DNA of 64,000 bases, taken from positions 3,469 through 67,468 of the IMG/VR virus record IMGVR_UViG_3300029305_000878; one strand, 5' to 3'. The notes below the pieces were generated by a model. It did no database searches and was not told the origin of the DNA. It worked only from the letters and a program-made list of their open reading frames with translations. A program made the position numbers and the translations under genes. This DNA is from a virus (Duplodnaviria > Caudoviricetes). Below are positions 3 through 28,426 of the stretch, piece by piece; position 1 is the first letter of the stretch, and each line of letters opens with the position of its first letter.

Positions 3-1211
3 GAAGGTTCGCTGCAGAATACAACCGGCTCGAAAGCTAACCGTGTTAAGTTGGCATCCACCAAGAAAGGTATCGAAAACTTTCTAACAGGTTCGCTTTT
101 ACAGATACGTCCAATGACAATCGATAAGCTTCAGGGCTTGCGAGTCAAAGTCGCTACGATAGACGAATGGCTTTCTGGTGATATCAGAGAGGACGTTATC
201 GGTGCAATTGAACAAGGTGCGGCAAAAGAGCAAGGTTCTGCTGAAAACAATGACTATCTCATCGTAGCGATTAGTTCGGAAGGTACAGTTCGTAACGGAC
301 CTGGCGATACAATCAAAATGGAGTTGTTGGATATACTCAAAGGTGAGTATTTCAATCCGCATGTATCTATTTGGTGGTATAAGCTCGATTCCGTCGATGA
401 AGTTAAGGATCCAGAAATGTGGCCAAAAGCCAACCCTAATCTTGGTAAGACTGTTACCTATGAGACTTATCAGCTGGATGTGGAGAGAATGGAAAAAGCT
501 CCTGCATCTCAAAACGATATTTTAGCTAAACGTTTTGGTATCCCGAGGGAAGGCTATACGTATTACTTTACTTATGAAGAAACCTTAACACATAAGAAGC
601 GAGAGTATTGGGGAATGCCTTGCGCACTGGGAGCCGACCTTTCTCAAGGTGACGACTTCTGTGCATTTACATTTATGTTCCCTCTTAGAGATGGAGCATT
701 CGGCATTAAGACTCGAAATTACATAACGTCCACCACTATGGCTAAATTACCACCGGCTATGAGAACCAAGTATGAGGATTTCTTAGCGGAAGGTAGTTTG
801 ATAGTTCTTGACGGAACAGTTTTGGACATGATGGAAGTTTACGAGGATCTGGACAATCATATAGCGCAATGCGAGTATGATGTGCGATGCTTTGGTTTCG
901 ACCCTTATAATGCTAGAGAGTTCGTTGAAAGATGGGAATCCGAAAACGGTCCATTTGGGATCGAGAAAGTAATACAGGGTGCTAAAACCGAATCCGTTCC
1001 TCTGGGTGAGTTGAAGAAACTCTCAGAAGAGCGGCTTCTTTTATTTGACGAAAAACTTATGACCTTTGCCATGGGTAACTGTATCACGTTAGAAGATACC
1101 AATGGTAATAGGAAATTATGGAAGAAGCGTTATGATCAAAAGATCGACGCTGTGGCGGCAATGATGGACGCTTACGTCGCCTTTAAACTCAATAGAGAAG
1201 CGTTCGAATAA
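3..1211 (+). CDS. terL: Terminase large subunit (5' truncated by window start)
   Basis: Frame open from nt 3; ATPase motif DEWLSG; nuclease motifs LGADLSQGDDF, FGFDPYNA, KIDAVAAMMDA. Confidence 0.93.
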   Translation, partial: EGSLQNTTGSKANRVKLASTKKGIENFLTGSLLQIRPMTIDKLQGLRVKVATIDEWLSGDIREDVIGAIEQGAAKEQGSAENNDYLIVAISSEGTVRNGPGDTIKMELLDILKGEYFNPHVSIWWYKLDSVDEVKDPEMWPKANPNLGKTVTYETYQLDVERMEKAPASQNDILAKRFGIPREGYTYYFTYEETLTHKKREYWGMPCALGADLSQGDDFCAFTFMFPLRDGAFGIKTRNYITSTTMAKLPPAMRTKYEDFLAEGSLIVLDGTVLDMMEVYEDLDNHIAQCEYDVRCFGFDPYNAREFVERWESENGPFGIEKVIQGAKTESVPLGELKKLSEERLLLFDEKLMTFAMGNCITLEDTNGNRKLWKKRYDQKIDAVAAMMDAYVAFKLNREAFE

Positions 1212-1229
1212 GGAGGAACCAATCTTGAA

Positions 1230-3218: not shown

Positions 3219-3228
3219 GGAGGATATT

Positions 3229-3543
3229 ATGGCATATAGAGAAATTCCGGAATCTGCAATTGAAGTTCAAACCGGATTGTGGGCTAACTTTAGAACGGTT
3301 TCGCTCGGGAACATGACTATGACTAAGTGTGACTTATATTCATCGGAAGGATATTGTTTCTACATCCCGGACAACAACCTTGATGAAAATGGCAACTTAT
3401 TGCCCGAAAACGAAAGACTGTATTACCAGTACATGTCTTCGCCTTGCAGCACTGTAGAGCAGGTTAACGCGCGTTACGTCTCCGTCCCCGTGCAAGACGG
3501 CTACGAAATCGCAAACACCGGCAACAACCACGAAGTCGCATAA
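3229..3543 (+). CDS. Hypothetical protein (104 aa)
   Basis: AAGGAGG RBS; tightly linked to the BspA-like gene. Confidence 0.8.
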   Translation: MAYREIPESAIEVQTGLWANFRTVSLGNMTMTKCDLYSSEGYCFYIPDNNLDENGNLLPENERLYYQYMSSPCSTVEQVNARYVSVPVQDGYEIANTGNNHEVA

Positions 3544-3557
3544 GAAGGAATACTATT

Positions 3558-3908: not shown

Positions 3909-3928
3909 GAAGGAGGCCAAAATTCAAA

Positions 3929-5221
3929 ATGGGTTTACTTAGCAGAATTAAACGTGGCTGGAACGCCTTTCGAAACAATAGAGATCCGACGGCATATGAG
4001 TACCGCGATCTTGGTCAGAGCTATTATCGCCGCCCCGATAGGGTTCGGTTCTCGGGAGGTAACGAGCGTACAATCACGACCTCCATATACAACCGAATCG
4101 CTATGGATGCAGCTGATATAGACATCCGCCACGTTCGATTGGATAAAGAAGACCGCTTTAGTGATTATGTAAAGTCTGGCTTGGACAAATGTTTAACTGT
4201 TGAAGCTAACATCGACCAAACCGGCAGAGCATTTAGACATGATATGGTCGCTTCCATGCTTGATGAGGGCGTTATAGCGATTGTTCCGGTTGATACGGAT
4301 GACGATCCGACAGAGAGCGGTTCTTACACTATTGAAACGATGCGAGTAGGTAAGATAGTAGAGTGGTATCCAGCTCATGTCCGGATTCAATTATACAACG
4401 ACCAGATAGGTAGAAAAGAGTATGTGACTCTTCCTAAAGATTCGGTCGGGATCGTCGAGAATCCGCTGTATGCGGTCATAAACGAGCATAACTCAACAAT
4501 GCAGCGTCTTGTAAGAAAACTGTCTTTGTTGGACGGCATCGATGAAAAGAATTGTTCTGGCAAATTGGATTTGATCATTCAATTACCTTACATAATTAAG
4601 ACCGATGCTAGACGCCAACAGGCCGAAACGAGACTTAACGACATAGAAGACCAGTTAGCGAATTCTCGACATGGTATTGCTTATACGGACGGTACGGAGA
4701 AGATCACTCAGTTGAATCGTCCCGTTGAGAACAATCTACTTAAAGAGATCGAGTACCTCACCAATATGTTGTTCAGTCAACTCGGCTTAAGTCAAAGTAT
4801 CTTGGATGGGACGGCTGACGAAAAGACGATGCTTAACTATCATAACCGAACCATTAAACCAATTGTGTCGGCGATAGTTGATGAGCTTAAGCGTAAATTC
4901 CTTACTAAAACTGCTAGAGCGCAGGGTCAATCGATTATGTTCTTCAGAGATCACTTCGAACTTGCGTCTGTTGATAGTATGGCTGAAAGTGCGGATAAGC
5001 TTACCCGTAATGAAATCTTGTCGAAGAACGAAATCAGACAAGCTATGGGTTACAAGCCGTCTAGCGATCCTAAGGCCGATCAACTTATAAATAGTAATAT
5101 TAGTCATCCAGCGGAAGGTCCTAATAAAGCTGCGGCTAAAGTTCCGATTAAGCAGCCCGATGGATCTGGCGAAGGTGCAAAAGAAAATTTAAAGGAGGAA
5201 GTTCAAAATGGAGAAGTATGA
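3929..5221 (+). CDS. Portal protein
   Basis: 430 aa, position before protease/capsid, HK97-like portal C-terminal pattern (NEIRQAMGYKP). Confidence 0.9.
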   Translation: MGLLSRIKRGWNAFRNNRDPTAYEYRDLGQSYYRRPDRVRFSGGNERTITTSIYNRIAMDAADIDIRHVRLDKEDRFSDYVKSGLDKCLTVEANIDQTGRAFRHDMVASMLDEGVIAIVPVDTDDDPTESGSYTIETMRVGKIVEWYPAHVRIQLYNDQIGRKEYVTLPKDSVGIVENPLYAVINEHNSTMQRLVRKLSLLDGIDEKNCSGKLDLIIQLPYIIKTDARRQQAETRLNDIEDQLANSRHGIAYTDGTEKITQLNRPVENNLLKEIEYLTNMLFSQLGLSQSILDGTADEKTMLNYHNRTIKPIVSAIVDELKRKFLTKTARAQGQSIMFFRDHFELASVDSMAESADKLTRNEILSKNEIRQAMGYKPSSDPKADQLINSNISHPAEGPNKAAAKVPIKQPDGSGEGAKENLKEEVQNGEV

Positions 5222-7100: not shown

Positions 7101-7120
7101 TTCAAAATGGAGTGAATGTT

Positions 7121-9472: not shown

Positions 9473-9479
9473 TGGCTTT

Positions 9480-10128: not shown

Positions 10129-10506
10129 GTGATTAGTTTCAGACATAAGGGTGACTTTTCCAAGCTAGGAAAGTTTCTGACTAATGCCAAGCGAGCTGTT
10201 AGCAATACGGACCTGGACAAGTACGGAAGGGCCGGAGTGGCCGCTCTAGAGTCCGTAACTCCTGTAGACACCGGTTTAACCGCTCGATCTTGGTACTACG
10301 AAATAGAGAATAGAAAAGGTTCAACGACAATTAGATTCTGTAACTCGAATGTTCAAAACGGAGTTCCGATTGCCATCATATTGCAGTATGGTCACGGGAC
10401 TCGAAACGGAGGCTGGGTTCAAGGGAGAGATTACATCAATCCTGCGATCCTGCCTATTTTTGATGAGATATTAAATAAAGCATGGGGGGAGGTGACTAAG
10501 CAGTGA
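10129..10506 (+). CDS. HK97-gp10-like neck/tail component
   Basis: TPVDTGLTARSW and LQYGHGTRNGG motifs. Confidence 0.75.
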   Translation: MISFRHKGDFSKLGKFLTNAKRAVSNTDLDKYGRAGVAALESVTPVDTGLTARSWYYEIENRKGSTTIRFCNSNVQNGVPIAIILQYGHGTRNGGWVQGRDYINPAILPIFDEILNKAWGEVTKQ

Positions 10507-16500: not shown

Positions 16501-18926
16501 GAGCTAGCTTCTTAGCTGGTCTTAGTGCTTTACTCACTGGCGGATTATCGATTGTTACTTATGTGGCATCGGTTGAAGTCATAGGTAAAGCTATGGCTGG
16601 CTTCTCGAAGCAAGTAAAAGACATAGATACTGCAGCAGTAACCACCGCAGCTAATGCCGCTAGTCCTTTGAATAAAGCTGTTCTGGCGATGACCGGTACT
16701 AGCTTCTTAGCTGGTCTTAGCGCTCTATTGACCGGTGGTTTATCTATTGCTACTTACGTGTTATCAATCGAAACTATTGGTAAAGCGATGGGTTCGTTCG
16801 CTAAGCAGGTAAAAGGAATTGATCCTGCTACTATGAAAGTGGCTGCCGATGCAGCTAGGCCGTTGAATAAGACCGTACTGGAGATGACTGGTACTTCGTT
16901 CTTGTCGGGCTTAGTTGCATTACTTACTGGCGGTTTATCTATTGCTACTTACGTGTTATCAATCGAAACTATTGGTAAAGCGATGGGTTCGTTCGCTAAG
17001 CAGGTAAAAGGCATTGATACCGCAGCTGTCAGCACGGCGGCTAACGCGGCTGGTCCTTTGAATAAGGCTGTGATAGCCATGAGCGGCAATTCGATTGCGA
17101 CTACCATAGGATGGCTGTTGGGCTTAGGGTTCGAACCTTACAAATACGCAATAAAAATCATCGGTCAGTCGATAGCGGGATTCTCTAAAGAAGTAAAAGG
17201 CATCGATACTGGAGCTGTTACGGCAGCTGCTAACGCGGCTGGTCCTTTGAACAAGGCAGTTCTGGCTATGACCGGGAATAGTGTGTTGACTGGTTTGACT
17301 GCTATTCTCACTGGTGGATTGTCGCTAGTCACCTATGGTGCTTCGGTTGAAGTCATAGGCAAAGCTATGGCTGGCTTCTCCAAGCAAGTAGCCGGTATTG
17401 ATACAGCGGCTGTTACGGCGGCAGCTAATGCGTCTGGACCTTTAAGTAAAGCTGTAAACAGCATGACTGGATCTAGCTTCTTATCCGGCTTGGTCGCATT
17501 ACTTACAGGTGGTTTATCGTTAATCACCTATGGCGCTTCGGTTAAAGTTATAGGTGCTGCAATAGCCGGTTTCTCTAAAGAAGTAACAGGTATTGATACC
17601 GCAGCTGTAACTGCAGCCGCAAACGCAGCTGGTCCTTTGAATAAAGCCGTAAGATCCATGACCGGAAGCGGGATCATCTCGTGTTTGGGACAAATCTTCG
17701 ACGCAAGGGATCAGTACAAGAAGGGTGTAAAAGCTGTCGGCGAAGCTATGGCCGCTTTCGCTGAAAAAGTGGCTGGTATAAATCCTACAGCCGTGTCCGC
17801 AGCAGCTGACGCAGCTACGAAGATTACTTCGGTGGTGAAAAATATGCCGAAGAAGACCGACCACTTGGCGAGTGTCGGAAAGAACATAGTTAAATTCGCT
17901 GACAAGTTGAAAGAGTACTATGATACGGCTGGCGGTATTACGTCCGAATCCATTAGTTCGGCAAAGAACGCAGTCGATTCGATCAAGGCACTTTCTACGA
18001 CCAATGTTAGCGGACTGAAATCCATTTCGGATGGCATTAATAAAGTTGTAAAATCGATTAAAGAGCTTAAAAAAGTGCCTAACAATATAGTGGACTCTTT
18101 TACTAACGCTCTTGAAAAATTAGGCAAAACTAGTGTTGACTCTTTTGTTGACGAATTCGACGATCTGGAAACCGACTTGAAAAAGAAGGCTAAGAAGGGC
18201 ATCGACGGGTTTATAAGCGGAGTCGGCGATAAAAAGTCTTCCGCTAAGAAAACGTGCACCGATATGGTTAAAGCTTGCGCGGATGCGATTAGCTCTAAAG
18301 GTTTCAAAACCGCGGGTAAAGATTGCGCCCAAGGCTTTGCTGATGGTATTTCGGCTAACACGTTTAAAGCTAAAGCTCAAGCAAAAGCAATGGCCGAAGC
18401 AGCACTTGAGTCGGCAAGACAAGCACTTAAAATCAACTCGCCTTCGAAAGTATTTAGAGACCTCGGTTACTCAGTTCCCGAGGGCTTTGCTATGGGTATC
18501 GATAAGCTCAGCGGGGTCGTAAGAACTTCTGCCGAGTCTATGACTGATAGCTCTATCGAGGGCGTAAAGCGAGGTATTTCTCGCATTGCGGATGTTGTCA
18601 ATAGCGATATGGACACTCAACCTACGATTCGCCCGGTCCTTGACTTGAGCGATGTTGAGAAAAGCGCTAGCTCCATTGGCGGTATGTTCGATACGGATGC
18701 TAATATCGGCGTTCGTACTAACATCGGAGCGATCAATTCCCTGATGGCTCAGCGCAATCAAAATGGAGCAAATGACGATGTCGTCTCTGCTATTGAAAAG
18801 CTCGGCAAGGGCATTAAGAGTGGAGATACGTATAACTTAGGCAACATTTCGTATAACGATGATAGCAGCATTGCGAATGCTGTAAGAGAACTGGTAAGAG
18901 CAGCTAGAATTGAAAGGAGGGTGTAA
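10503..18926 (+). CDS. Tape measure protein (2807 aa)
   Basis: N-terminal tape-measure domain (LNAYADKTIYNFTEMT...KLMDWNS), long Ala/Gly/Leu helical body, C-terminal INSPSKVFRDLG. Confidence 0.95.
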   Translation: MSTTIDQRVVEMRFDNKQFEQGVSTTMSTLDKFKEKLSLKGSAKAVESELASYKAGVFSFRDAIGKAWSSLEYDVGIRAKNIAKNMANSLLGVTAMKTGFQEYETQINAIQTILANTESKGTTLDDVNSALDELNAYADKTIYNFTEMTKNIGTFTAAGTDLETSVKAIQGIANLAAVSGSTSQQASTAMYQLSQAMASGTVKLMDWNSVVNAGMGGQVFQDALKETAKVHGVAIDDIIAKNGSFRESLSEGWLTTEILTDTLEKFTMYAEEGSKEWEAYKKTLIEKGYTEAQAEEILKMGKTATEAATKVKTFSQLFDTLKEAAQSGWTQTWEILVGDFEEAKELLTNISEVVSGFINKMSESRNELLENWKVMGGRQDLIESFSNIFKALLSVIKPIKEAFTEIFPPATSEQLFAITEGLKNFTAKLKLSEKGSENLKRTFSGLFAVLKVAITIIKTVFKAIGTILSGLSGLGGGVLGITAVLGDFLSILSELILSGGLVEKAFHGVATVIKYLLKFVVTLVKGVASLFEFIGADLVFPGIVSLVDGLRSVFDGMNDAGDSAGSFKEKLTNAFSAVGKALKNNPIFKFFTILWDGIKKVGSGIAKIFKNVFGGIFDVLANGSITEILDFINGIITGGVGIALINFLKNLGSSVSTFKEQASDIMDGVKDILDSVTGSFKAFQNSLNAEALKKLAISIAILTASLLVLSLINKDKLHDSVAAIVMLFAGLLTGMSIIAKSDGQLALQGVATTLVSLGIAVLLLASALKKISSLEVEEMAVGVVGLAGVMALLVGAMKILPLGKGDKIAKPFLKFCAQMILVAKAAQMMAKTLVLLADLSWKELARGLVGLTSIMVLLVGAMMALGTLTDCAETAEFYSRSQTRNLAGIALALVGFAAAVRLLIPAITELGNMEWEKLGKAGVALAGLVGAFALLAKAIQMVKADSIMKTSASLLIISASMLVLSGAMKVFATMSWEDLAKGASALAGVIGAITLLGLVSNKIVKPGSMNVMAASLAILAASLWLIIPPLLAFSAMKWEMLAKAGAALGGLIAALALLGVAAQIASPYTIGAMAASLAMLAVSLQLLVVPLGLVGLMKWSSLAKGLIALAGTLTILAVAAHFLGPSIITLVLLSGAILAIGTAIFAFGAGMGILASGLASAAVAVGLLGTSIAGVAVSFAGALTIIVGALATTIPLFVAKFAEGIGLAIVALCKVIIDGAPALGEAVIALVLTLCRVIDECAMPLITTVLNLVYELLQALIDFAPAIADSLLELLVVVFDSLVKFIPALVDILVDIFVSIVDGVADRSQDIIISLINLFSKIFGALGKALFGLDASSLFKGVLAFSILALMVKTFASIPMSLIPKAMKGLAGVSLLVAELGVILGLIGLIANSTNAVWLINKGGDVLGAIGSAIGKLIGGLVGGIAAGFTANFPDITASVGQAIKVFSDKVKGVDPAAITAAAKAAGHLTVAVLSMTGASLVLSVARLLGGGISLGTYLLGVSTVGQAIKSFSKKVKGVNPAAVVAASKAAGHLNKAVVSMTGAGLLSGLSTLLTGGLSFGAYASSVAIIGLAMATFSKQVEDIDIAAVLAASSAAGPLNKAVVAMTGTGVLAGISAILTLGASLIAYMDSVNIIGKAIAGFSKEVEDVDPASVVAAAKAAGPLNVAVVGMTGAGFLSGLSALLTGGLSLVTYGASVEVIGKSIAGFSKQVEDVDPSTVVAAAKAAGPLNKAVLAMTGTSFLAGLGALLTGGLSFVTYGASVEVIGKAMAGFSKQVEDIDTSSVTTAAKAAEPLNKAVLAMTGSSFVSALSTLLTGGLSLVTYVTSIGVIGKAMAAFSKAINKGDIDPAAMKTAAKSAGYLNKAVLAMSGTGFVATLATILSLGTGTMMYEESVKVIGKAIAGFSKEVKDIDTAAVTSASQAAGPLNKAVVAMTGAGFLAGLSALLTGGLSIATYVASVEAIGLAMAVFSKQVENIDTASVTTAANAAGPLNDAVLAMTGASFLAGLSALLTGGLSIVTYVASVEVIGKAMAGFSKQVKDIDTAAVTTAANAASPLNKAVLAMTGTSFLAGLSALLTGGLSIATYVLSIETIGKAMGSFAKQVKGIDPATMKVAADAARPLNKTVLEMTGTSFLSGLVALLTGGLSIATYVLSIETIGKAMGSFAKQVKGIDTAAVSTAANAAGPLNKAVIAMSGNSIATTIGWLLGLGFEPYKYAIKIIGQSIAGFSKEVKGIDTGAVTAAANAAGPLNKAVLAMTGNSVLTGLTAILTGGLSLVTYGASVEVIGKAMAGFSKQVAGIDTAAVTAAANASGPLSKAVNSMTGSSFLSGLVALLTGGLSLITYGASVKVIGAAIAGFSKEVTGIDTAAVTAAANAAGPLNKAVRSMTGSGIISCLGQIFDARDQYKKGVKAVGEAMAAFAEKVAGINPTAVSAAADAATKITSVVKNMPKKTDHLASVGKNIVKFADKLKEYYDTAGGITSESISSAKNAVDSIKALSTTNVSGLKSISDGINKVVKSIKELKKVPNNIVDSFTNALEKLGKTSVDSFVDEFDDLETDLKKKAKKGIDGFISGVGDKKSSAKKTCTDMVKACADAISSKGFKTAGKDCAQGFADGISANTFKAKAQAKAMAEAALESARQALKINSPSKVFRDLGYSVPEGFAMGIDKLSGVVRTSAESMTDSSIEGVKRGISRIADVVNSDMDTQPTIRPVLDLSDVEKSASSIGGMFDTDANIGVRTNIGAINSLMAQRNQNGANDDVVSAIEKLGKGIKSGDTYNLGNISYNDDSSIANAVRELVRAARIERRV
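14823..17850 (+). repeat. About 15.5 x 195-bp (65-aa) tandem repeat inside the tape measure gene
   Basis: Unit GKAMAGFSKQVxxIDTAAVTxAANAAGPLNKAVLAMTG...; 16737-16816 and 16932-17011 are identical over 80 bp. Confidence 0.95.
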
Positions 18927-18929: not shown

Positions 18930-21668
18930 ATGGCGATTAAAAAAACCGATTCCAATGGTCGAGAGTACGTTATCGTCGAAAGAAACGATACTCTTTGGGA
19001 TATCGCGGATACGTATCTTGGCGCTGGAAATAGATATACCCAGCTGGCAGCGATTAATAAGATGAACAATCCGAATCTTATACATCCCGGCCAAACAATA
19101 TACCTTGAAAAGACTAGCAGCTCTTCCGGGAGCTCGTCTAAGTCATCGAGCGCTAAGACCGTAACAATAACCACTCTCGAATTACAAGCCGATGTCGAGG
19201 ATACGCTGTACGTAATGTGGACCTGGGATAAGCATGGCAATACCGAAGAATATGAGGTTAAGTGGGAATATTATACCAAAAATCTGAAATGGTTCGGCGG
19301 GGTTAGTACCACAACAACCACTAAGGATCTATTCGCAACGTATAGTATACCATCGAATGCTACTTTGGTAAGAGTCTCGATTAAACCGGTATCTAAGACG
19401 TATAAAAGCGGTGACAAAGATGTTGCATACTTCACCGCTAATTTCTGCAAAGCGAAAGAGTATCAGGTTATCGACAAACCCGCTACTCCATCGTCTCTCA
19501 GTGTCGAACTTAACGGTTTGGAATTGAAGGCTGAGGTCTCCAATCTTAAAGACGAACCGCAGCTCGTTCAATTCGAGGTGGTTAAGGATAACACTACGAC
19601 CGTTAAGAAAGAAAAAGTAAAAGTCGAAACCGGCAATGCGTCGTATTCTTGTACCGTCGCTGCTGGTAGCTTTTACAAAGTTCGCTGCCGGGCGATTAAG
19701 AACGATATATACAGCGAATGGACTGACTATTCGAACAACTTCGAGAGCTCTCCGGCGGTTCCTGCTGGGTTCACGAAATGTGAGCCTGGCGAGCCGTCCG
19801 TAGACGGTCCTACGATTGCTCTAGAATGGGCCAGTATCACCACAGCTGTTAGTTACGATATTCAGTATACAAATGTAAAGTCCTATTTCGATACCACGGA
19901 CAAACCTACCACTAAAACTGGAATTACTACGACATCTTATCTATTAGTTGACGGGCTTGAAAACGGAAAAGAATATTTCTTTAGAATCCGGTCGGTTAAT
20001 AGTAAAGGTGCTCAGTCCGAATGGTCTGAAATAAGTAATGTAGTTCTTGGTAAAGAGCCCGCTCCACCCACCACTTGGTCTTCGACAACGACAGTTATCG
20101 TCGGTGAGCCATTATATTTCTATTGGACTCACAACTCTGAGGACGGTTCGTCACTGACGTATTCACATATTAGAGTTCTTGCCGATGGGGTTGAAGTTTT
20201 AGCTTGGGACATTGATCATACACAAGATGATGAGGAAACTAGTACTGGTTCGTATACGTTCGATACATCGGCGTATGCGGAAGGAACAAGACTTCAATGG
20301 GCCGTTAGGACTGCTGGTATTAGTAAAACATACAGCGATTACTCGGTTGAAAGAATAGTCGATATTTATAAGCAACCGACATTACGGTTAACACTCACCG
20401 ATGTTGATGGAAATGTATTCGATGAACTTTCATCGTTTCCTATTAATGTTTCCGCGATACCCGAACCCGCGACTCAAAGTCCGATCTGGTATCATCTGGA
20501 GATAACGTCCAATGAGATTTACGAAACTATTGACAATGTCGGCAACGTCAAAATGGTTAGTGCTGGAGAACAATTATACTCCGAACATTTCGATATTTCG
20601 ACTGCGCTTGAAACAGTTATCTCGGCGGGTGATGTTAATCTTGAGAACAATAAGTCATACACGATCACTTGTACGGTAACTATGGACTCGGGTTTGACCG
20701 CTGTCGCGTCGTCCGAATTCACTGTTTCGTGGGTCGATACTGTATACACGCCAAATATGCAAATAGCTATCGACCAAGATAAGTTATCGGCTATGATAAG
20801 CCCTTATTGCGAAAGCACTTCACTTACGTATTGTAAGGTCAATCTGGTCAACGGCGAGTATCAGGTGGATAGCGAAACCACGTACGATTTCGTATGCAGA
20901 GCGTACACCAGAGATGACGATGATACCATTGCGGTTATAGTTCCACCTGTCGGTACACTTAGTACTGGCGAGAAAGTTTACCAGGGCGTTACGGCCGATG
21001 GTGACGAGATTTTATATTCCGAAATAATCACGACTACTCCTGTAGAAGATGTAATTTTATCAGTATACAGGAGAGAGTTCGATGGCGGTTTCACGTTATT
21101 GCCTAGCGCCGAGTTAACGGGTGACAAGAACACTTACATAGTGGATCCCCATCCGGCTTTGGATTACGCTCGCTATAGAATTGTAGCCAAATCCACGAAA
21201 ACCGGTGCTGTGAGCTATTACGACCCGCCCGGTCAACCTGTCGGGTGCAAGTCCGTAGTTATTCAATGGGATGAAGCATGGTCGCAGTTCGATACTTTTG
21301 GGGTTGAGGATCCATTGGCTGAACCGCCTTGGTCTGGCTCAATGTTGAAACTTCCGTACAATATCGACGTATCGAATAAGAATGCGCCAGACACTTCATT
21401 AGTGGAATATGCTGGTCGGAAACATCCGGTTAGCTATTATGGAACTCAACTCGGCGAAACCGCTACATGGAATGTGGTTATTGAGAAGAGTGATATCGAG
21501 ACGCTGTACGCTTTGCGCCGGTTATCGATTTGGATGGGAGACGTGTATGTACGCGAACCTTCCGGGTCGGGATACTGGGCGAATATTAAAGTAACATTTA
21601 GTCAGAAGCATCGTGAGCTGACTATACCCGTAACAATTGATGTAACAAGAGTCGAAGGAGGTGCATGA
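18930..21668 (+). CDS. LysM + fibronectin type III tail (distal tail/baseplate) protein
   Basis: LysM (DTLWDIADTYLG...NPNLIHPGQTIYL); FN3-like (YFFRIRSVNSKGAQSEWS); Dit-like C-terminus. Confidence 0.8.
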   Translation: MAIKKTDSNGREYVIVERNDTLWDIADTYLGAGNRYTQLAAINKMNNPNLIHPGQTIYLEKTSSSSGSSSKSSSAKTVTITTLELQADVEDTLYVMWTWDKHGNTEEYEVKWEYYTKNLKWFGGVSTTTTTKDLFATYSIPSNATLVRVSIKPVSKTYKSGDKDVAYFTANFCKAKEYQVIDKPATPSSLSVELNGLELKAEVSNLKDEPQLVQFEVVKDNTTTVKKEKVKVETGNASYSCTVAAGSFYKVRCRAIKNDIYSEWTDYSNNFESSPAVPAGFTKCEPGEPSVDGPTIALEWASITTAVSYDIQYTNVKSYFDTTDKPTTKTGITTTSYLLVDGLENGKEYFFRIRSVNSKGAQSEWSEISNVVLGKEPAPPTTWSSTTTVIVGEPLYFYWTHNSEDGSSLTYSHIRVLADGVEVLAWDIDHTQDDEETSTGSYTFDTSAYAEGTRLQWAVRTAGISKTYSDYSVERIVDIYKQPTLRLTLTDVDGNVFDELSSFPINVSAIPEPATQSPIWYHLEITSNEIYETIDNVGNVKMVSAGEQLYSEHFDISTALETVISAGDVNLENNKSYTITCTVTMDSGLTAVASSEFTVSWVDTVYTPNMQIAIDQDKLSAMISPYCESTSLTYCKVNLVNGEYQVDSETTYDFVCRAYTRDDDDTIAVIVPPVGTLSTGEKVYQGVTADGDEILYSEIITTTPVEDVILSVYRREFDGGFTLLPSAELTGDKNTYIVDPHPALDYARYRIVAKSTKTGAVSYYDPPGQPVGCKSVVIQWDEAWSQFDTFGVEDPLAEPPWSGSMLKLPYNIDVSNKNAPDTSLVEYAGRKHPVSYYGTQLGETATWNVVIEKSDIETLYALRRLSIWMGDVYVREPSGSGYWANIKVTFSQKHRELTIPVTIDVTRVEGGA

Positions 21669-21669: not shown

Positions 21670-23130
21670 ATGGCTGATTGGAAGTCATCGATGCAGCAAA
21701 CATTTGAATACTATATCGTTGATCCGAATACGTGGAAGGATATTAGGCTGATCGATACTGTAAAATCATGCACTATAAGCCGAGATGCGGAAACAGACAC
21801 TCTCGGCTCCGCCTCCCTAGATGTCGTCGACTCGCTCGGCGAATGTTATGTAAGGGTCTACCTTGTAACAATTCAAAATGGAATTAGAGAAAGGCATCCG
21901 CTTGGTACTTTCTTAGTACAAACACCATCGTCGCAGTATGATGGAAAAATGCGAACTGCCACCATGGATGCCTACACTCCATTATTGGAGCTTAAAGAAA
22001 AACAACCACCGCTTGGATATTACGTGCCAAAGACTGTGTATCTCAAAGTCGAAAAGATGGACGATACGTATACGAAAACCGAAGAGGTGGTCAAACCAGT
22101 ATTTGGGACCAAGATGGATTCGGTAACGACCACTACCGGTGAGCAGGTGTTTAGTTGGGTTTCTGATAAAGGGGAAACATTATATTACTGTTTGAAAGAG
22201 ACAGTGACGGATCTCGCTTATCGTTTGGTAAGAGAAAACGCAAGAGCTCCCGTGGCAAAGATTACAAACCTTACTCCGCTGCAATACGATTTCGTATCGA
22301 ACACTGAAGATACTTGGTTCACGTTTGTAAAAGACCTGATATCGAGTGCCGATCACGAGTTAGCTTTGGACGAAATGGGGCGTATTCTTTTCTCGCCCAA
22401 GCAGGATATCGGATCGTTAAGCCCCGTGTGGACCTATAGCGACGATGACAGCTCGATCTTGTATACTGACATAACTACCAATCATGATCTGTACGGGATA
22501 CCGAATGTTATCGAGGTCGTATATTCGACGGCTGATAACTTGATGTATTCACGCGCGGTGAATGACGATCCGAATAGTCCGACGTCTACGGTATCTCGAG
22601 GTCGAGAGATCGTGCGTCGCATAACCGATCCCGAGTTGTCTGGCGCGCTTACTCAAGCGCAAGTTGATGACTACACCGATAGGCTTTTGCGTAGCGTATC
22701 CTCGGTCGAATACCGAATAACTTACTCGCACGGATATTGCCCCGTTCGCGTTGGCGATTGTGTACGTATCAATTACGCTAAGGCCGGCATAAAGAACGTA
22801 AAAGCTAAAGTTATTAGTCAATCGATAAAGTGTGAAGCTGGGTGTAAAGTCTCCGAGACGGCTGTTTGGTCAGTTAGCTTATGGCGAGGTACATCGCATA
22901 CTATTTCGTACAATGCAAATGGCGGTGATGGAGCTCCCGAAAGTCAGACTAAAGGCTGGAGAGCTGTTATACGGATTTCCGATACGATCCCCACGCGCGA
23001 AGGATACGAATTCGTTGGATGGGGCTTGACTGAGCATTCGACAGAAGTCGCATATGCGCCTGGTGATAATTACACTGAAGATGTTGATATTCAACTTTAT
23101 GCTATTTGGAACGGAGGTGATTCGCAATGA
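21670..23130 (+). CDS. Baseplate hub / tail-associated protein with C-terminal InlB B-repeat
   Basis: Position; ISYNANGGDGAP...PTREGYEFVGW...LYAIW repeat. Confidence 0.7.
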   Translation: MADWKSSMQQTFEYYIVDPNTWKDIRLIDTVKSCTISRDAETDTLGSASLDVVDSLGECYVRVYLVTIQNGIRERHPLGTFLVQTPSSQYDGKMRTATMDAYTPLLELKEKQPPLGYYVPKTVYLKVEKMDDTYTKTEEVVKPVFGTKMDSVTTTTGEQVFSWVSDKGETLYYCLKETVTDLAYRLVRENARAPVAKITNLTPLQYDFVSNTEDTWFTFVKDLISSADHELALDEMGRILFSPKQDIGSLSPVWTYSDDDSSILYTDITTNHDLYGIPNVIEVVYSTADNLMYSRAVNDDPNSPTSTVSRGREIVRRITDPELSGALTQAQVDDYTDRLLRSVSSVEYRITYSHGYCPVRVGDCVRINYAKAGIKNVKAKVISQSIKCEAGCKVSETAVWSVSLWRGTSHTISYNANGGDGAPESQTKGWRAVIRISDTIPTREGYEFVGWGLTEHSTEVAYAPGDNYTEDVDIQLYAIWNGGDSQ

Positions 23131-26100
23131 GTTTGTCTAGCGACTTAGTATCTCAGTTTGTCAAAGCCACTAATGATAACACTAAAGCTAAAAAAGAGGC
23201 GAGCGTTGTCTACGGTACCGTTACGCAAGCTGGAGATCAGACGTACGTAAAGCTCGATGGATCTGATATTTCAACTCCCGTGACGACAGCTGCTACGGTT
23301 AAAACTGGAGATCGAGTAATTGTATCCATTAAAAACCATAGCGCTGTAATCACCGGGAACGTGAAAGACCCCTCGGCAAGCAATAGCGAAGTTGAAAACA
23401 ATAAAGCCGAAGCCGATTCCAAAATAACTGAGTTGGGCGTAGCTGTGGCAGATCGGATTACCGTTGAACAGCTGAACGCTAATAACGCCGTAATTAAGGA
23501 AGAGTTGTTGGCTAACGACGTAAAGGTTCAAAATACCCTGACTGCGAGTATCGTCGAAGTTGAACGTAAATTGACTGCGAAGGATGTCGAGATAACTGGT
23601 AAGCTCGATGCTAACGAAGCATCTATTAGAGAACTTTATGCTAATAGTTTAACTGTTGAAAGTGCGCAGGCGACTTATGCTACTATCAAGAATCTCGAGG
23701 CTACAAATGCCGAGGTTAATAGTCTAAAAGCTACGCATGCGGAGTTTAAGCAAGCGACGATCGACGACCTGAAAGCTAAGCAAGCGTCGATTGACAAACT
23801 CAACACCGATAAGCTCAATGCTTCCGAAGCCGCAATTAAGTACGCTCTGATCAGCGAATTGAATGCTGAAACTGCGCGTATCAATAATCTTAACGCTGAG
23901 GTTGGTGATATTAACACGTTAATGTTCGGGTCGGCTACAGGCGATGTTATACAAACGTCGTTTGCGAACGCTGTAGTTGCCCAATTAGGGGCGGCTCAGA
24001 TTAAGTCGGCGATGATTGAAAGTATCTCTGCGGATAAAATTTCGGCAGGAGATATTAGCACGAACAACGTTAGAGTAGTATCCGAGGATGGTCGATTGAT
24101 TATATCGGATGAGACTATTCAAATCAGTGATAGCAAAAGAGTTAGAGTGCAAATCGGTAAAGATTCGTCCGGAGACTATTCCATTAATGTATGGGATGCT
24201 GACGGAAAATTAATGTTTAGCGAAGGCGGCATTACAGATAACGCCATCAAAGATGCGATCATTCGTAATGACATGGTTAGTGAAGGTGCTAACATATCCG
24301 CTAGTAAGCTCAACATCGATAGCTTGTTTAAGGTCATTAACGAAGATGGTTCCAACACCTTAAAGTCGTCCAAGATCTTACTGGACAAAGAAGGTCAAAC
24401 ATTAGACGTCGCTTTCGAGGAAATGACCACTGGCGTGGAAGATCTCGAAAAAACCGTGAGTTCGCAAGGTACGAGCATATCAGCAATCCAGGGTAAAATC
24501 TCGAGTAAAGTTTGGCAACAAGATATTACGACTGCCGTGGATAATATCAAAATGGGTGGTCGAAATTACTTCATCAGAAAAAACATCAACAACTTAGCTT
24601 GGGGTAGTGGTAGTACGTTACTGGAAAATGTGGCGTATCGAGGTTACTCGTTCCCCGTTGAGGCAGGCGAACAATGGATCCTTTATAGAACCGATGCGAC
24701 TAATAATCGTTGGGGTTTATATTGGCTTACCGAGGAACCGGTCGCCGGCTCTACGGACATGATTATTGCGATGAGAGCTGACGAGCAAGCAGCGAATCAG
24801 GTTAATCGCTTCACGGTGCCAGAAGGTAGAACGTGGGGTTTCATATATTTGTCGAATCAAGGTGACGAAATACCTAATATCATGCTCGAAAAAGGTAATA
24901 AAGCATCTGATTGGACTCCTGCCCCAGAAGATGTCGAAGGGGATATTGCGTCACTGTCGGCTCAATATAGTTCTCTTGAGCAAACCGTAAATGGTATTTC
25001 GACAACCGTTGCGTCTCATACTAGTGAGATTGCTAAAAAAGCGGACGGTAGTACTGTTACTGCGGTGTCTAATAAAGTATCCGAGTTAGAGCAAGATCTC
25101 GACGGATTTAAGACCACAGTTAGTAATACGTTTAATGATTATTCCACGACCGAGCAGGTTCAAAGTGCCATTGATCAAAAAGCAGACAGTATAACTTCGA
25201 CCGTTAGTTCTAAATATGCAACTAAAGAGTCCGTTGAAGATGTTGAGGCGATGGTGGAATCGTTAGGCACGCGGGTTACCACTGCTGAGACGAGCATAAC
25301 TCAAAATACGGAGCAGATCGCGCTTCGAGCGACAAAAACTGAGGTATCGACTGCTAAGTCCGAAGCCATCTCGGCAGCCAGCTCAGATGCTACGACAAAG
25401 GCTAATAACGCGTTATCTAGCGCTAATGCGAATACTACCGAAGCACTAAAGAATTATAGCACGACATCGGAAATGAACGCCGCTATAGATTTGAAAGCGG
25501 ATGGAATAGTATCCACCGTAAGTAAGACTTACGCAACGAAATCCGCATTAGAGACCACTAACTCCAACGTTGCGACTGCGCAAAATACCGCAAATTCAGC
25601 AAAAGATAGTATAGACACTCTCGAAATTGGTGGGAGAAATTATTTCAGACCATCTCAAGTTGTCGACTTAGGCTGTACCGGTTTGGCTTCTGGTGAACAA
25701 GGTCTGATAAGTACGGGTAATTGTGTTGGCTTTTCAGTCGCTGTAGAAGAAGGCGAGACTTGGTCATTAAGTAGAAGTTCGTTATCCAATAATCGATTCG
25801 ACTACTGCTTCACCATCGACGAACCAAGCAATGGAACGTTGATTTATGAGTGGAACTCCGGAGGCAGATCGCTTCTGAAAATAGAGGGGATTACCGTTCC
25901 GGCCGGAAAGGGTTATAAGTTCCTCGTTTTATATTTATCAAATCAAAGTGATATAGACGTATTACCTAATATTAAGTTGGAGCGAGGCAGTAGAGCCACC
26001 GACTGGACTCCGGCACCTGAAGATATGGCTACCGCTGAAGAAGTTGACCAAGCTGACGAAAAAGCGTCTAATGCTCAAACCTTAATCGCTCAGTTATCCG

Positions 26101-26561
26101 ATAGCATATCGATGCTAGTTACTGATGGTAACGGCACGTCACTTATGACTCAAACCGAGACTGGATGGACGTTTAGCACTTCCAAGATTCAGGAATCGGT
26201 TAACGCCGTATCTGATAACTTAAATTCCCTGACGGAAGAAGTTGGGGATGCGAGTAATGCTATAGATATTCTACAACGAGCTGTGGATGATCTTGGCGAA
26301 ATTGCGGAATACGTCAGTATAACAACCTACGAAGACGAACCTTGCATAGAGCTGGGCGAGGGTGATAGCGATTTCAAGTTACGCATCACTAATACTCGTA
26401 TGATGTTTACGGAAGGTTCTGTGGTATTGGCATATTTTAACAATCAATCGTTCTGCTCTAAAAAAGTAACGATTGAAGAGGAGCTTCAACAGGGCGGTTT
26501 TGTCTGGAAGGCTAGAAGCAACGGTAATTTGGGACTTGTATGGAAAGGAGGTAATGGCTGA
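23127..26561 (+). CDS. Tail fibre / antireceptor-like protein (coiled coils + two GRNY...DWTPAPED modules)
   Basis: Long heptad-like regions; duplicated module MGGRNYF...EKGNKASDWTPAPED and IGGRNYF...ERGSRATDWTPAPED. Confidence 0.75.
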   Translation: MSLSSDLVSQFVKATNDNTKAKKEASVVYGTVTQAGDQTYVKLDGSDISTPVTTAATVKTGDRVIVSIKNHSAVITGNVKDPSASNSEVENNKAEADSKITELGVAVADRITVEQLNANNAVIKEELLANDVKVQNTLTASIVEVERKLTAKDVEITGKLDANEASIRELYANSLTVESAQATYATIKNLEATNAEVNSLKATHAEFKQATIDDLKAKQASIDKLNTDKLNASEAAIKYALISELNAETARINNLNAEVGDINTLMFGSATGDVIQTSFANAVVAQLGAAQIKSAMIESISADKISAGDISTNNVRVVSEDGRLIISDETIQISDSKRVRVQIGKDSSGDYSINVWDADGKLMFSEGGITDNAIKDAIIRNDMVSEGANISASKLNIDSLFKVINEDGSNTLKSSKILLDKEGQTLDVAFEEMTTGVEDLEKTVSSQGTSISAIQGKISSKVWQQDITTAVDNIKMGGRNYFIRKNINNLAWGSGSTLLENVAYRGYSFPVEAGEQWILYRTDATNNRWGLYWLTEEPVAGSTDMIIAMRADEQAANQVNRFTVPEGRTWGFIYLSNQGDEIPNIMLEKGNKASDWTPAPEDVEGDIASLSAQYSSLEQTVNGISTTVASHTSEIAKKADGSTVTAVSNKVSELEQDLDGFKTTVSNTFNDYSTTEQVQSAIDQKADSITSTVSSKYATKESVEDVEAMVESLGTRVTTAETSITQNTEQIALRATKTEVSTAKSEAISAASSDATTKANNALSSANANTTEALKNYSTTSEMNAAIDLKADGIVSTVSKTYATKSALETTNSNVATAQNTANSAKDSIDTLEIGGRNYFRPSQVVDLGCTGLASGEQGLISTGNCVGFSVAVEEGETWSLSRSSLSNNRFDYCFTIDEPSNGTLIYEWNSGGRSLLKIEGITVPAGKGYKFLVLYLSNQSDIDVLPNIKLERGSRATDWTPAPEDMATAEEVDQADEKASNAQTLIAQLSDSISMLVTDGNGTSLMTQTETGWTFSTSKIQESVNAVSDNLNSLTEEVGDASNAIDILQRAVDDLGEIAEYVSITTYEDEPCIELGEGDSDFKLRITNTRMMFTEGSVVLAYFNNQSFCSKKVTIEEELQQGGFVWKARSNGNLGLVWKGGNG

Positions 26562-28426
26562 TGGCTGCAACATCATATTCGGGTTCAGTTTCAAAATGGA
26601 CTCCATTTGGGGTAGCGTTAGATCTTAAGGTTTCTATTACTAGCGTCACCCGAACTTCCGCGACCGAGTTTACTGTGAGAATCACTGCTTCCTGGGAGAC
26701 GTATTATTCCGGAGCTGCGACTAAATACGGTATGCGCGCTCGATCTAGTAATTCCAGCGTTACGATAAGCAATTTCGATGGAACATCCCGTAGCTCTGGA
26801 AGTGCATCATTTACAGCCAAGTTTTCCATAAGTGGTAACGGTGCATCCACGAAGACTATCGGGGTAGTATTCGAAAACTACAATACTGACAACGCCGATT
26901 CCAAGACGACGACTGTGTCCGTCAGTGGCGTGTCCGTTCCTGCTTGGACTTCCTATACTATCACGTATAACGCTAATGGCGGCTCTGGTGCTCCCGGAAA
27001 TCAAACGAAATGGAAAGATCAAACCCTTACCCTTTCAAGCACCAAGCCCACTAGAACTGGATATTCATTCTTGGGATGGTCTACATCTTCAACGGCGACT
27101 ACCGCTACATATTCTGCTGGTGGAAGCTATACCGCTAACTCCGCAGCGACACTTTATGCGGTGTGGAAGGCTAATACTTACACTGTCAAGTACGATGCTA
27201 ATGGCGGTAGCGGAGCGCCTGGAAATCAAACAAAGACATACGGAGTCACGCTTAAGCTTTCCAGTACGATACCGACCAGGACTAATTACAACTTCAAAGG
27301 TTGGGGTACGTCCGCATCGGCAACTACAGTATCGTATGCTGCTGGCGGCAACTACACGGCAAACGCTGCTGTTACTCTATACGCTATTTGGGAGCTAGCC
27401 TATGTTAAGCCGCGTATTACTAATCTATCGGTAGTTCGTGGCAGTTGGGACGGAGATGAAATCGAGGACGGTACGTACGCTCTTGTCGATTTCGATTTCG
27501 AGTGCGATCTAAACTGGACTAGTATCGTGATAGAGTGGGAGAGTGAAACCACCGACCCCGCATCAATGACTTGGACAGGTTCCCCGAACACTAGCGGTCA
27601 TATATGCGCCATTGTTGGCGACGGCGCTCTTAATACAGAGACAACCTATACGATTAGGGTAATCGTCACGGATGCGAATGGATATTCATACGCGTTTGGT
27701 ACTTTGAGCAGTACCAAATTCGTTATAGACTTTATGACCGGAGGGAAAGGCGCTGCTTTCAATAAGTCAGCCGAGTTAGAAGGCGTTCTTGATATCGGAT
27801 TCAAGACTCGCTTTTTCGGAGGAATATTATATCCGGTCCTAGATCCTGAAACGGACTTGAATGACATTAAAACGCCGAATACGTATATCGGAGCAAATGT
27901 AGCGGATTACGCATATGTTAATTGTCCGGTGTCGAGCGGTACGTTCACTCTAATCGTGGAAAGCGGTGGCGCGGAAGGTCAGGTAAGACAAACTTATATA
28001 AGCTGTAGTAAGTACAAGCCCGAAAGATATGTTCGTTTTTATTACCAGGAAGCATGGGGCGAATGGTTTTGGGCTGGAACCGAGGAATACGTATTATACG
28101 AGAATAGTAACGGTTCGGCCGACACGATAACTCTCAATGCATCTGTAGCTAATTATCGGTATATAGAAATATATTATACAGATAACAATAATAAAGGTCA
28201 GGGTTATACTAAGATATGGAACGCGAACAATAAAGTCGCGCATTTGCAGCTCCAAGAAGCTGGTAGTAATCCATATTTCCGACAAACCGCTTACTCTATA
28301 GTAGGTACTAGTATTACTCCCGAGGTGGCCACCGCCAGTTATGTTAGAGTTAGTACTGCTGGTGCGGTAACAACATCGATCGGAACAAATTATATAAAAA
28401 TAGTTCGCGTTATAGGACGAGCTTAA
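26561..28426 (+). CDS. Minor tail / receptor-binding protein with two InlB B-repeats
   Basis: Two YxAN GGSGAP...PTRTxYxFxGW...LYAxW repeats; Ser/Thr-rich. Confidence 0.7.
   Translation: MAATSYSGSVSKWTPFGVALDLKVSITSVTRTSATEFTVRITASWETYYSGAATKYGMRARSSNSSVTISNFDGTSRSSGSASFTAKFSISGNGASTKTIGVVFENYNTDNADSKTTTVSVSGVSVPAWTSYTITYNANGGSGAPGNQTKWKDQTLTLSSTKPTRTGYSFLGWSTSSTATTATYSAGGSYTANSAATLYAVWKANTYTVKYDANGGSGAPGNQTKTYGVTLKLSSTIPTRTNYNFKGWGTSASATTVSYAAGGNYTANAAVTLYAIWELAYVKPRITNLSVVRGSWDGDEIEDGTYALVDFDFECDLNWTSIVIEWESETTDPASMTWTGSPNTSGHICAIVGDGALNTETTYTIRVIVTDANGYSYAFGTLSSTKFVIDFMTGGKGAAFNKSAELEGVLDIGFKTRFFGGILYPVLDPETDLNDIKTPNTYIGANVADYAYVNCPVSSGTFTLIVESGGAEGQVRQTYISCSKYKPERYVRFYYQEAWGEWFWAGTEEYVLYENSNGSADTITLNASVANYRYIEIYYTDNNNKGQGYTKIWNANNKVAHLQLQEAGSNPYFRQTAYSIVGTSITPEVATASYVRVSTAGAVTTSIGTNYIKIVRVIGRA

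Follow-up and report, generated by a model that had tools for sequence, protein, structure and literature searches.

Late genes carry co-oriented copies of a 9-mer

The window analyzed here is a 64-kb stretch (bases 3469-67468) of a 67,468-bp IMG/VR record that carries a 101-bp terminal repeat. The 9-mer TCAAAATGG is present in 11 copies in the window and 12 across the 67.5-kb genome, all on the + strand. They are spread over ~29 kb that begins with the gene for a 478-aa DUF7211 protein, shortly before the large terminase gene, and reaches the tail-fibre genes. The main features are as follows (window coordinates, except for the first).

Genome position 1457, upstream of the window, + strand: copy 12 of TCAAAATGG, supplying the ATG of the 478-aa DUF7211 protein
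313..321, + strand: copy within the large terminase gene, amino acid context DT-IKME
3924..3932, + strand: copy giving the portal start codon, within the Shine-Dalgarno-to-ATG spacer
5203..5211, + strand: copy giving the start codon of the capsid-protease fusion gene
7102..7110, + strand: copy beginning 2 nt past the capsid stop codon
9050..9058, + strand: copy within the phrog_4338 gene, TCA AAA TGG read as S-K-W
10353..10361, + strand: one-mismatch copy, TCAAAACGG
11395..11403, + strand: copy within the tape-measure gene
18758..18766, + strand: copy near the 3′ end of the tape-measure gene, with the next gene 172 nt on
20548..20556, + strand: copy within a LysM/fn3 tail gene
21873..21881, + strand: copy within the gene for a 489-aa tail protein
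24547..24555, + strand: copy within the gene for an 1144-aa tail protein
26591..26599, + strand: final copy, 30 nt into the gene for a 621-aa protein with Listeria-Bacteroides repeats
29278..30471, + strand: strong intrinsic terminator cluster that closes the late unit
59285..59311, + strand: copy of a second motif, class E (CGCGA..AAACA..CCCTATTATGA), heading the polymerase-encoding operon
60708..63650, + strand: gene for a single-chain two-barrel RNA polymerase (980 aa; phrog_4291 match), the candidate reader of the motif

An initial annotation of this DNA had listed 11 exact + strand copies between 313 and 26599, and every one was found where it had been placed. The contexts it gave were also correct: copies supply the portal and capsid ATGs, one follows the capsid stop, and eight are intragenic. 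These eight occupy all three reading frames. The near copy reported at 10353 is real as well, but the TCAAAACGG variant was not enriched among relatives (2 forward and 3 reverse occurrences in 1.25 Mb), and the 10353 site is probably not functional.

The word was also said to be absent from the − strand and from the early region, and equal numbers there had been named as evidence against it. An exact count over the whole window gave 0 copies on the − strand and 0 beyond 26.6 kb; the 38.9-kb early segment likewise held none, against 0.56 expected from synonymous-codon shuffles. Dinucleotide shuffles of the window averaged 0.71 copies and never exceeded 3, compared with the 11 observed. Synonymous-codon shuffling of each late gene, the null proposed in the initial annotation, did not reproduce the count either (mean, 1.97; maximum, 7 in 1,000 shuffles; 10 observed inside open reading frames). 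No published description of the 9-mer was found in the literature. In window positions 1-20000, neither terminator-like sequences (17, versus 17.5 in shuffles) nor sigma-70-like sequences (32, versus 30.8) were present above chance.

The word is invariant among phages of two host phyla

Most of the first 80 related loci had TCAAAATGG as their most frequent 9-mer. Across 155 related metagenomic loci (2.31 Mb) it occurred 824 times in the forward orientation and never in reverse, and it was forward-only in 30/30 whole metagenomic records and in 10/10 cultured phages. The cultured-phage set covered Arthrobacter, Gordonia, Streptomyces, Microbacterium, Curtobacterium, Rhodococcus, Bifidobacterium, and Lactococcus phages plus a human-gut record, and all 10 cultured-collection records were picked through their polymerase homologue. 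The word is identical in phages of Actinomycetota and Bacillota, which infect hosts as different as soil actinobacteria and gut clostridia. With hosts in two phyla, the motif must have a phage-encoded reader. All nine positions are needed, since every one-mismatch variant occurred at most 34 times, compared with 486 exact copies. The antisense strand held 0 copies where ~9 were expected, as would be the case for a site able by itself to start transcription.

Approximately 29% of the copies supply a start codon and ~4% a ribosome-binding site, while 67% lie within coding sequence; 430 of 641 unique copies were intragenic, evenly distributed over the three reading frames. Spacing was more even than chance, with a median gap of 1.74 kb and only 6% of gaps under 500 nt (21.5% expected). 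The motif was enriched at capsid, portal, and post-capsid gene starts. No copy stood directly in front of the major tail gene in any of 60 relatives, and the TerS, HNH, and connector genes lie upstream of the first copy. Start-codon copies retain a normal ribosome-binding site upstream, which argues that the genes concerned are also translated from longer transcripts. No upstream element was found to accompany the 9-mer.

Many individual sites are conserved in position. The copy in the terminase gene, at 313, was exact at the orthologous position in 43/59 relatives, including Lactococcus phage P092 and actinophages. Its ATC AAA codons are kept where flanking synonymous positions are free to vary. 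The initial annotation had proposed checking relatives for conservation at synonymous positions, and the word is under selection at such sites. By these alignments, the 313 copy is an ancient, positionally conserved site. The copy at 9050 was exact at its position or no more than 40 nt off in 55/59 relatives, with identical TCA AAA codons even in actinophages with 52 to 61% GC; on this comparison, it too is ancient. At gene starts, the best-conserved site was that at 7102 (45/59 relatives), whose GGAG is the ribosome-binding site of the phrog_4270 gene (ATG at 7121), the head of the connector and tail-tube genes. The motif was at or adjoining the capsid start in 38/60 relatives, including Arthrobacter, Gordonia, Streptomyces, Microbacterium, and Curtobacterium phages, and no more than 60 nt from the portal start in 25/59. 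Within the tape-measure gene, the copy at 18758 was kept in 16/16 alignable relatives. That at 11395 is lineage specific, being present at the same position in 1/27 alignable relatives, which indicates turnover of sites.

A phage RNA polymerase accompanies the word

The product of 60708-63650 has a DFDGD loop and N- and C-terminal helix-turn-helix (HTH) domains, with HTH and sigma-70 region 4 hits. The best fold matches of its structure model were QDE-1, RDR2, and the Thermus-phage gp64/gp62 polymerases (PDB 8f72 and 8f5m), and it is predicted to be a YonO/QDE-1-type DNA-dependent RNA polymerase. YonO itself was too distant to be reached by tblastn with this protein. The DFDGD sequence was present in 11/11 relatives' homologues, and enzymes as far apart as those of Lactococcus phage 1706 and the actinophages share the catalytic loop and the two HTH recognition helices. 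A homologue was encoded in 24/24 near-complete metagenomic records, always on the strand of the motif; in 11 genomes read through, the polymerase gene ended 1.7 to 7.9 kb upstream of the first motif copy. The motif was forward-only in all 40 records, and the polymerase was found in the 24 near-complete metagenomic records and in all 10 cultured-collection records. Motif and polymerase co-occurred in every genome tested and across both host phyla, although the word never varies and all relatives have the polymerase, so that the co-occurrence offers no covariation contrast.

The virion may contain the polymerase. Rhodococcus phage homologues are labeled "structural protein" (ReqiPoco6) or similar to 1706 gp75, a structural protein (ReqiPepy6), and the N-terminal sequence LxHYG..SGRYPWGSG is invariant. 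A virion-packaged polymerase would point to an early role.

Class E is a second conserved motif, CGCGA-N-ACA-N-CCTATWATGR, and a rival candidate for the promoter of the phage polymerase. It corresponds to the 50-bp intergenic motif of Gordonia phage Vardy (PMC9671010), occurs in the same genomes as the 9-mer, and is equally strand specific. Its core ends in WATG-purine, as does the 9-mer (CCTATWATGR versus TCAAAATGGR). Unlike the 9-mer, class E is ~27 to 50 bp long, intergenic, and early only; it is followed by leaders and terminators, and its upstream part is variable. Strict copies lay in early segments in 25 of 27 cases. The two motifs occupy complementary genome halves, as early and late promoter classes do, and no genome segment in this phage holds both.

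TCAAAATGG as a candidate late promoter

Of the functions offered in the initial annotation, a late promoter for the phage RNA polymerase is the best supported, by the co-occurrence, by the position of the motif downstream of the polymerase gene on the same strand, and by the lack of copies on the antisense strand and in the early region. We infer that the phage polymerase is the reader and that transcription initiation is the event at the site. The chances are about even that TCAAAATGG is a cis-acting late-transcription signal, most probably an initiator-type late promoter read by this enzyme.

If so, the polymerase gene, in the last operon before the genome end, would be expressed from an early-class promoter, and its product would initiate at 12 sites across a terminator-free late unit of ~31 kb. 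The resulting transcripts would be nested, all ending at the terminator cluster at 29.3 to 30.5 kb. The short promoter would overlap the initiation site and be read on the non-template strand by a polymerase of the YonO/QDE-1 type. Where the ATG of the motif is used as a start codon, or its GG(G)AG as a ribosome-binding site, no coding freedom would be lost, and such copies may give leaderless or short-leader mRNAs. The 67% of copies that are intragenic, and the lack of an upstream element, count against a promoter; a 9-mer alone would be of unusually low information for a phage-polymerase promoter.

T7 promoters span 23 bp and lie mostly between genes, and T4 late promoters (TATAAATA) depend on host core polymerase equipped with gp55, gp33, and the sliding clamp. 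Like the 9-mer, T7-group class II/III and T4 late promoters are co-oriented copies of one word through late genes, some of them within the coding sequence of an upstream gene, and in both groups the word is conserved across hosts because its reader is phage encoded, to which we liken the situation here. The phiKZ non-virion polymerase uses a late promoter, (-3)TATG(+1), that overlaps the start site (PMC7618050). The phiKZ promoters resemble the 9-mer in being very short, ending in ATG, and occurring in many copies co-oriented with late genes; overlap with the start site is shared only if the 9-mer is a promoter. In phiKZ, a phage two-barrel polymerase reads its promoter without a host sigma factor, as we propose here, but the phiKZ enzyme is multisubunit and its consensus is 4 to 5 bp, whereas the present word has 9 invariant bp and is two-thirds intragenic. 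YonO transcribes the late genes of Bacillus prophage SPbeta, and its promoter sequence is undefined (PMC5467207). As in this phage, it is a single-chain two-barrel polymerase encoded just upstream of late genes; SPbeta differs in having one mapped start site, P_YonO, and one long operon. TCAAAATGG does not occur in the SPbeta yonN-yonK spacer.

A stronger proposal is that these 9 invariant bp, as an initiator, make up the entire late promoter of a YonO-type single-chain RNA polymerase, unchanged since before the split between Actinomycetota and Bacillota phages. We regard this as tentative, with a probability somewhat below one-half. It would be the first promoter defined for this polymerase lineage and, with class E, would give a two-class, host-independent transcription program whose temporal switch could depend on the amount of polymerase or on its two HTH domains.

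Alternative functions of the word

The word might instead act in RNA. The late region would be copied into one long RNA reading through from the polymerase operon, and UCAAAAUGG would be targeted by a phage RNA-binding protein or endoribonuclease that cuts or stabilizes near translation starts. Restriction to the sense strand, the ~33% of copies that overlap a start codon or ribosome-binding site, and the copies flanking the capsid gene at both ends are consistent with this, as are the RNA around the motif, which is less structured than at control positions, and the chance-level terminator-like sites in window positions 1-20000. The SPbeta late genes also form a single YonO-made operon (PMC5467207). 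However, cutting at the two-thirds of copies that are intragenic would destroy the message, cutting at start-codon copies would part the ribosome-binding site from the AUG, and an RNA signal predicts no counterselection of the antisense copies, of which there are 0 rather than ~9. No nuclease candidate was found, and we consider an RNA-level signal unlikely. The translational operator suggested in the initial annotation meets the same division: it fits the 29% of copies at start codons and not the 67% that are intragenic and even over three frames.

To about the same small degree, we credit a signal in elongation, a kind of function that the initial annotation had offered as an antitermination or reloading site: a non-template element causing pausing, antitermination, or factor reloading (compare ops and sigma-dependent pauses) and so sustaining processivity over 25 to 55 kb. 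The regular spacing of ~1 copy per 1.7 kb with few short gaps, the frame independence of intragenic copies, the strictly one-way orientation, and the polymerase's own HTH domains all suit such a role. It sits poorly with the intrinsic processivity of YonO, which is very high with little pausing (PMC5467207), and the signals known to act in this way are found once per operon leader. A sequence that is inert unless transcribed through would not be expected to be missing from the antisense strand and early region, and exact conservation at certain gene starts would be left unexplained.

Less likely still is a late promoter for host core polymerase with a putative phage gp55-like factor, in which T-CAAAAT-GG would combine a -10-like element with a G-rich discriminator and a virion-delivered phage polymerase would use class E early. 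CAAAAT retains the A and T flipped out by primary sigma factors and is followed by GG, a layout shared by the class-E core CCTATWATGR; T4 late promoters provide a precedent, and, as noted above, the polymerase shows hints of being a virion protein. On the other hand, no Sigma70_r2-like protein was found among 20 early open reading frames, a search that leaves small frames and very divergent factors outside its reach, and the polymerase is the sole conserved transcription protein reported for the phage supergroup (bioRxiv 10.1101/842583). Pfam DUF7211 also gave no score on the polymerase N-terminus. This phage encodes a serine recombinase (integrase), and two of the relatives have a provirus classification; should phages of this kind be inducible prophages, the first expression of their early genes has to take place with no injected enzyme.

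We give very little weight to a polar site acting in DNA, such as a T5-like strand-specific nick, a packaging-motor guide, a primase start, or a Chi-like recombination signal. The word is recognized strictly, at all nine bases and on a single strand, as nicking sites are, and the group has a conserved HNH endonuclease and a conserved primase-polymerase. Yet the boundary of the word tracks the late gene cluster in genomes of 54 to 92 kb rather than replication or packaging geometry, and the association with start codons and ribosome-binding sites is unexplained by a DNA-only function. Chi-type sites are host specific, and a host polar motif of the Chi or KOPS type was rejected because the word is identical across Actinomycetota and Bacillota phages and confined to late genes.

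Stoperators of cluster A mycobacteriophages (L5) are genome wide, the early lytic promoter included, and occur only in temperate phages with a cognate repressor, and the start-associated sequences (SAS) of cluster K overlap the ribosome-binding site and stand only in front of start codons. Both resemble the 9-mer as short asymmetric words in many copies oriented with transcription, and both differ from it in that neither is conserved across phyla. Identity with the cluster K sequence was rejected, as that sequence always stands a few bases ahead of a start codon and 430 of the 641 unique copies here are intragenic. Stoperator-like sites, through which an immunity repressor would block late transcription in lysogens, had been put forward in the initial annotation and are the most improbable explanation of all: the asymmetric multicopy sites along the direction of transcription, some intragenic, and the integrase and Cro/CI-type repressor of this phage would fit, but neither the early region nor any early promoter has a copy, the word is invariant whereas immunity repressors diverge fast, and lytic relatives that lack an integrase carry it just as densely (PMC9671010). 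The relatives concerned are Gordonia phage Vardy, described as lytic (PMC9671010); Arthrobacter phage Tribby, whose record has no integrase or repressor annotated in its first 50 kb; and Lactococcus phage P092.

A strand-specific 9-mer in the late genes

The initial annotation described TCAAAATGG as a 9-mer with 11 exact copies in the window, all on the + strand and all among the late (virion) genes. Our recount agreed in number and strand, and the near copy placed at 10353 was also confirmed. The dinucleotide-shuffle mean for the window was 0.71 copies. The window corresponds to bases 3469-67468 of its source record, which carries a 101-bp terminal repeat, totals 67,468 bp, and has a 12th copy.

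Copies of the 9-mer and the late unit (window coordinates unless stated)
313, 3924, 5203, 7102, 9050, 11395, 18758, 20548, 21873, 24547, and a last copy ending at 26599; + strand; exact TCAAAATGG
Genome 1457; 12th copy of TCAAAATGG, whose ATG starts a 478-aa DUF7211 protein
Late unit in gene order; TerS, HNH, connector protein, DUF7211 protein, TerL, LRR protein, portal, capsid-protease fusion, phrog_4270, tail terminator, major tail protein, tape measure, tail genes, holin

A codon-preserving shuffle had been named as the test that could refute a late-restricted signal. When each gene was shuffled with its protein and codon usage preserved, 1.97 copies were obtained within late ORFs (maximum, 7 in 1000) versus 10 observed, while the early half gave 0.56 expected and 0 observed. 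Since the shuffle did not reproduce the count and the early half was empty, the signal is not refuted by this test.

Three copies (genome 1457 and window 3924 and 5203) share a layout in which a ribosome-binding site is followed by an ATG supplied by the copy itself. The copy at 7102 begins 2 nt past the capsid stop, and its GGAG serves the following gene as ribosome-binding site. The eight copies within coding sequence represent all three frames. Sigma-70-like promoters and intrinsic terminators were no commoner than chance in window 1-20000; a strong terminator cluster at 29278-30471 ends the late unit.

Conservation among relatives

A first set of 80 IMG/VR loci (1.25 Mb) was fetched via the capsid protein, at 41-62% amino acid identity. 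TCAAAATGG ranked as the commonest 9-mer in most of these loci, with 486 forward and 0 reverse occurrences, versus at most 34 for each one-mismatch variant. With a second set of 75 loci included, 824 forward and 0 reverse copies were counted, and 153 of the 155 loci had one or more. Antisense copies were absent where about 9 were expected. In 30 whole records the copies were confined to a single strand, and they formed a single contiguous segment of 18 to 55 kb in each of 11 genomes that were read through and in further records whose positions were examined.

Ten records of a cultured-phage collection, picked via full-length polymerase homologues, comprised phages of Gordonia, Microbacterium, Streptomyces, Curtobacterium, Arthrobacter (two), Rhodococcus, Bifidobacterium, and Lactococcus and a human-gut record. 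They carried 3 to 11 copies apiece at 33 to 61% GC. All were forward, and almost all lay in the structural region; a ReqiPepy6 copy at 45.5 kb may be outside it. The word occurs in readily cultured SEA-PHAGES phages (Arthrobacter, Gordonia, Streptomyces, and Microbacterium hosts) as well as dairy Lactococcus phages. It is identical across phages of two bacterial phyla, which excludes a Chi-like host signal. A search of genome contigs returned two matches; one was a Clostridia contig that carries the 9-mer twice, downstream of the polymerase gene, in the same layout.

A low-GC lineage lacking the motif was considered and rejected. The record of loci L045 and L047 is a fragment of 27 kb that carries 2 copies and gave no polymerase match, and near-complete records of the low-GC relative set found with the L047 capsid have 7 to 8 copies plus the polymerase. 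No polymerase-free relative that could have served as a natural control was found. The sequence ATCAAATGG, present in 7 copies in the related locus L084, was rejected as a motif variant; it is part of a 15-bp coding tandem repeat (AATCAAATGGATCCC, L084 3-100) that resembles a shortened motif and is a pitfall in k-mer counting.

A candidate reader of the 9-mer

60708-63650; + strand; 980-aa polymerase with a DFDGD loop and helix-turn-helix (HTH) domains at the N and C termini

A profile search of this protein against PDB sequences gave weak HTH matches only, so the enzyme was identified through a fold search. The AlphaFold model (mean pLDDT, 73.8) best matched QDE-1, RDR2, and the Thermus phage gp64/gp62 polymerases (PDB 8f72, 8f5m), and on these fold matches the protein is predicted to be a YonO/QDE-1-type two-barrel RNA polymerase. 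Such an enzyme was previously suggested in this phage supergroup (bioRxiv 10.1101/842583). YonO, the only studied relative, transcribes the late genes of SPbeta; its promoter was left undefined and is given as undetermined (PMC5467207), and how YonO-type enzymes find their targets has been open since 2017. The SPbeta yonN-yonK spacer contains no copy of the 9-mer.

A polymerase homologue was found on the motif's strand in every one of the 24 near-complete metagenomic records, and in the genomes that were read through (11) the gene ended 1.7 to 7.9 kb upstream of the first copy. In cultured phages the gene maps close to an end of the record, usually the right one. Conservation across phyla includes the catalytic loop and both HTH recognition helices, and the family is very large (at least 8000 homologues among the matches listed).

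Rhodococcus phage records label the homologue "structural protein." At its N terminus (window 60708-60800), the segment L-x-H-YG..(R/H)SGRYPWGSG is near-invariant from the enzyme of Lactococcus phage 1706 to that of Streptomyces phage Soshi. It resembles the DUF7211 tag of the 478-aa and 116-aa head-region proteins; the Pfam DUF7211 model gave no score on it. The segment is a possible capsid-targeting or processing signal and, together with the labels, a hint of polymerase packaging in the virion. In a 29% GC relative (IMGVR_UViG_3300028591_000235, 33242-36213), both polymerase halves contain in-frame TGA codons, which could reflect TGA recoding or a broken gene.

Site properties and possible functions

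Among 641 unique copies, 188 coincide with an ORF start codon, 23 form a ribosome-binding site, and 430 fall within genes, evenly divided among the three frames (133, 152, and 145). In actinophages the usual form is TCAAAATGGGAG followed by the start codon; Tribby has TCAAAATAGGAG. The flanks are weakly biased (A-rich from -4 to -1, no C at -1, A at both first positions 3′ of the motif), and 394 unique instances showed no distal box up- or downstream.

Individual sites were also followed through relatives. The S-K-W site is kept in 55 of 59, the post-capsid gene-start site in 45 of 59, the TerL site in 43 of 59, the capsid-start site in 38 of 60, and the site at the end of the tape-measure gene in 16 of 16; by this sequence comparison all five are ancient, and other sites are lineage specific. 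At the TerL site, ATC AAA is retained in 28 of 37 distinct sequences, while synonymous positions around it vary freely. A copy directly in front of the major tail gene was never seen among relatives.

We regard the 9-mer as most likely a short initiator-type promoter at which the phage polymerase would start late transcription, with about even confidence. The nearest precedent, (-3)TATG(+1), is used by the phiKZ non-virion polymerase as its late promoter (PMC7618050). An RNA-level processing or binding site is unlikely; copies do coincide with start codons and ribosome-binding sites, and the sites lie in weakly structured sequence, with no hairpin enrichment up- or downstream and no associated RNA structure. 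An elongation signal is equally doubtful. Copies are spaced more evenly than expected by chance, at a median distance of 1.74 kb. Less probable still is a late promoter read by the host core polymerase with a putative phage factor; a Pfam search of 20 early ORFs gave no sigma region 2. A nick or motor site acting at the DNA level is improbable, and the stoperator of the initial annotation is the least credible reading, since lytic phages of the group also carry the motif.

No published description of the 9-mer was found; full-text matches were primers and unrelated items. It offers a concrete candidate answer to how YonO-type polymerases locate genes, and exact conservation of nine letters across phages of two phyla is unusual for a cis-element. 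A promoter would make this a compact, possibly host-independent transcription module; otherwise, a major phage lineage has a strictly polar, late-region-wide signal of some other kind.

The class-E motif of the early region

A second motif, class E (CGCGA-N-ACA-N-CCTATWATGR), was confirmed as strand specific and located in early-region intergenic spacers (window 29101-59767).

29118, 29712, 30020, 34720; confirmed class-E copies
59300; confirmed class-E copy, heading the polymerase operon

Of 27 strict class-E copies in 11 genomes, 25 lay in early segments; thus, class E and the 9-mer are found in complementary genome halves. The class-E core resembles the 9-mer (YYAWAATGR; 6 of 10 positions identical), a likeness that on its own falls short of statistical significance. 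Class E is known from Gordonia DJ phages as a 50-bp motif, and the Vardy genome paper interpreted it as a sigma-70-type -10 promoter (PMC9671010).

Two schemes are compatible with the data. The host polymerase may use class E, after which the phage polymerase is made and uses the 9-mer; or the phage polymerase may act on class E, the 9-mer being a second promoter class or another type of signal. This phage encodes a serine recombinase (integrase), and two of the relatives have been classified as proviruses. Should members of this sort be inducible prophages, induction must start without injected enzyme, which favors the first scheme.

The terminator cluster at 29278-30471 comprises four or five strong hairpins between the lysis genes and the integrase; three lie inside a ~60-nt repeat, each followed by a class-E copy, forming a cassette array. 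The early-region word TTATATT was rejected as a signal, its frequency being mostly a codon effect.

Other features of the genome

36032-40183; three DUF6353 paralogues
46253-46714; phage single-stranded DNA-binding protein
51496-51918; peptide deformylase gene
55970-56150; 13 tandem 15-bp units (GAGCGRATCTC...), the pentapeptide-repeat part of a DUF5758 protein

Directly upstream of the window, a 290-nt noncoding stretch (genome 53-345) between the polymerase operon and TerS contains runs of G9 and C5 as well as a weak hairpin with a T-run. Its position matches the physical genome ends of cultured relatives, and it is probably the cos/end region.
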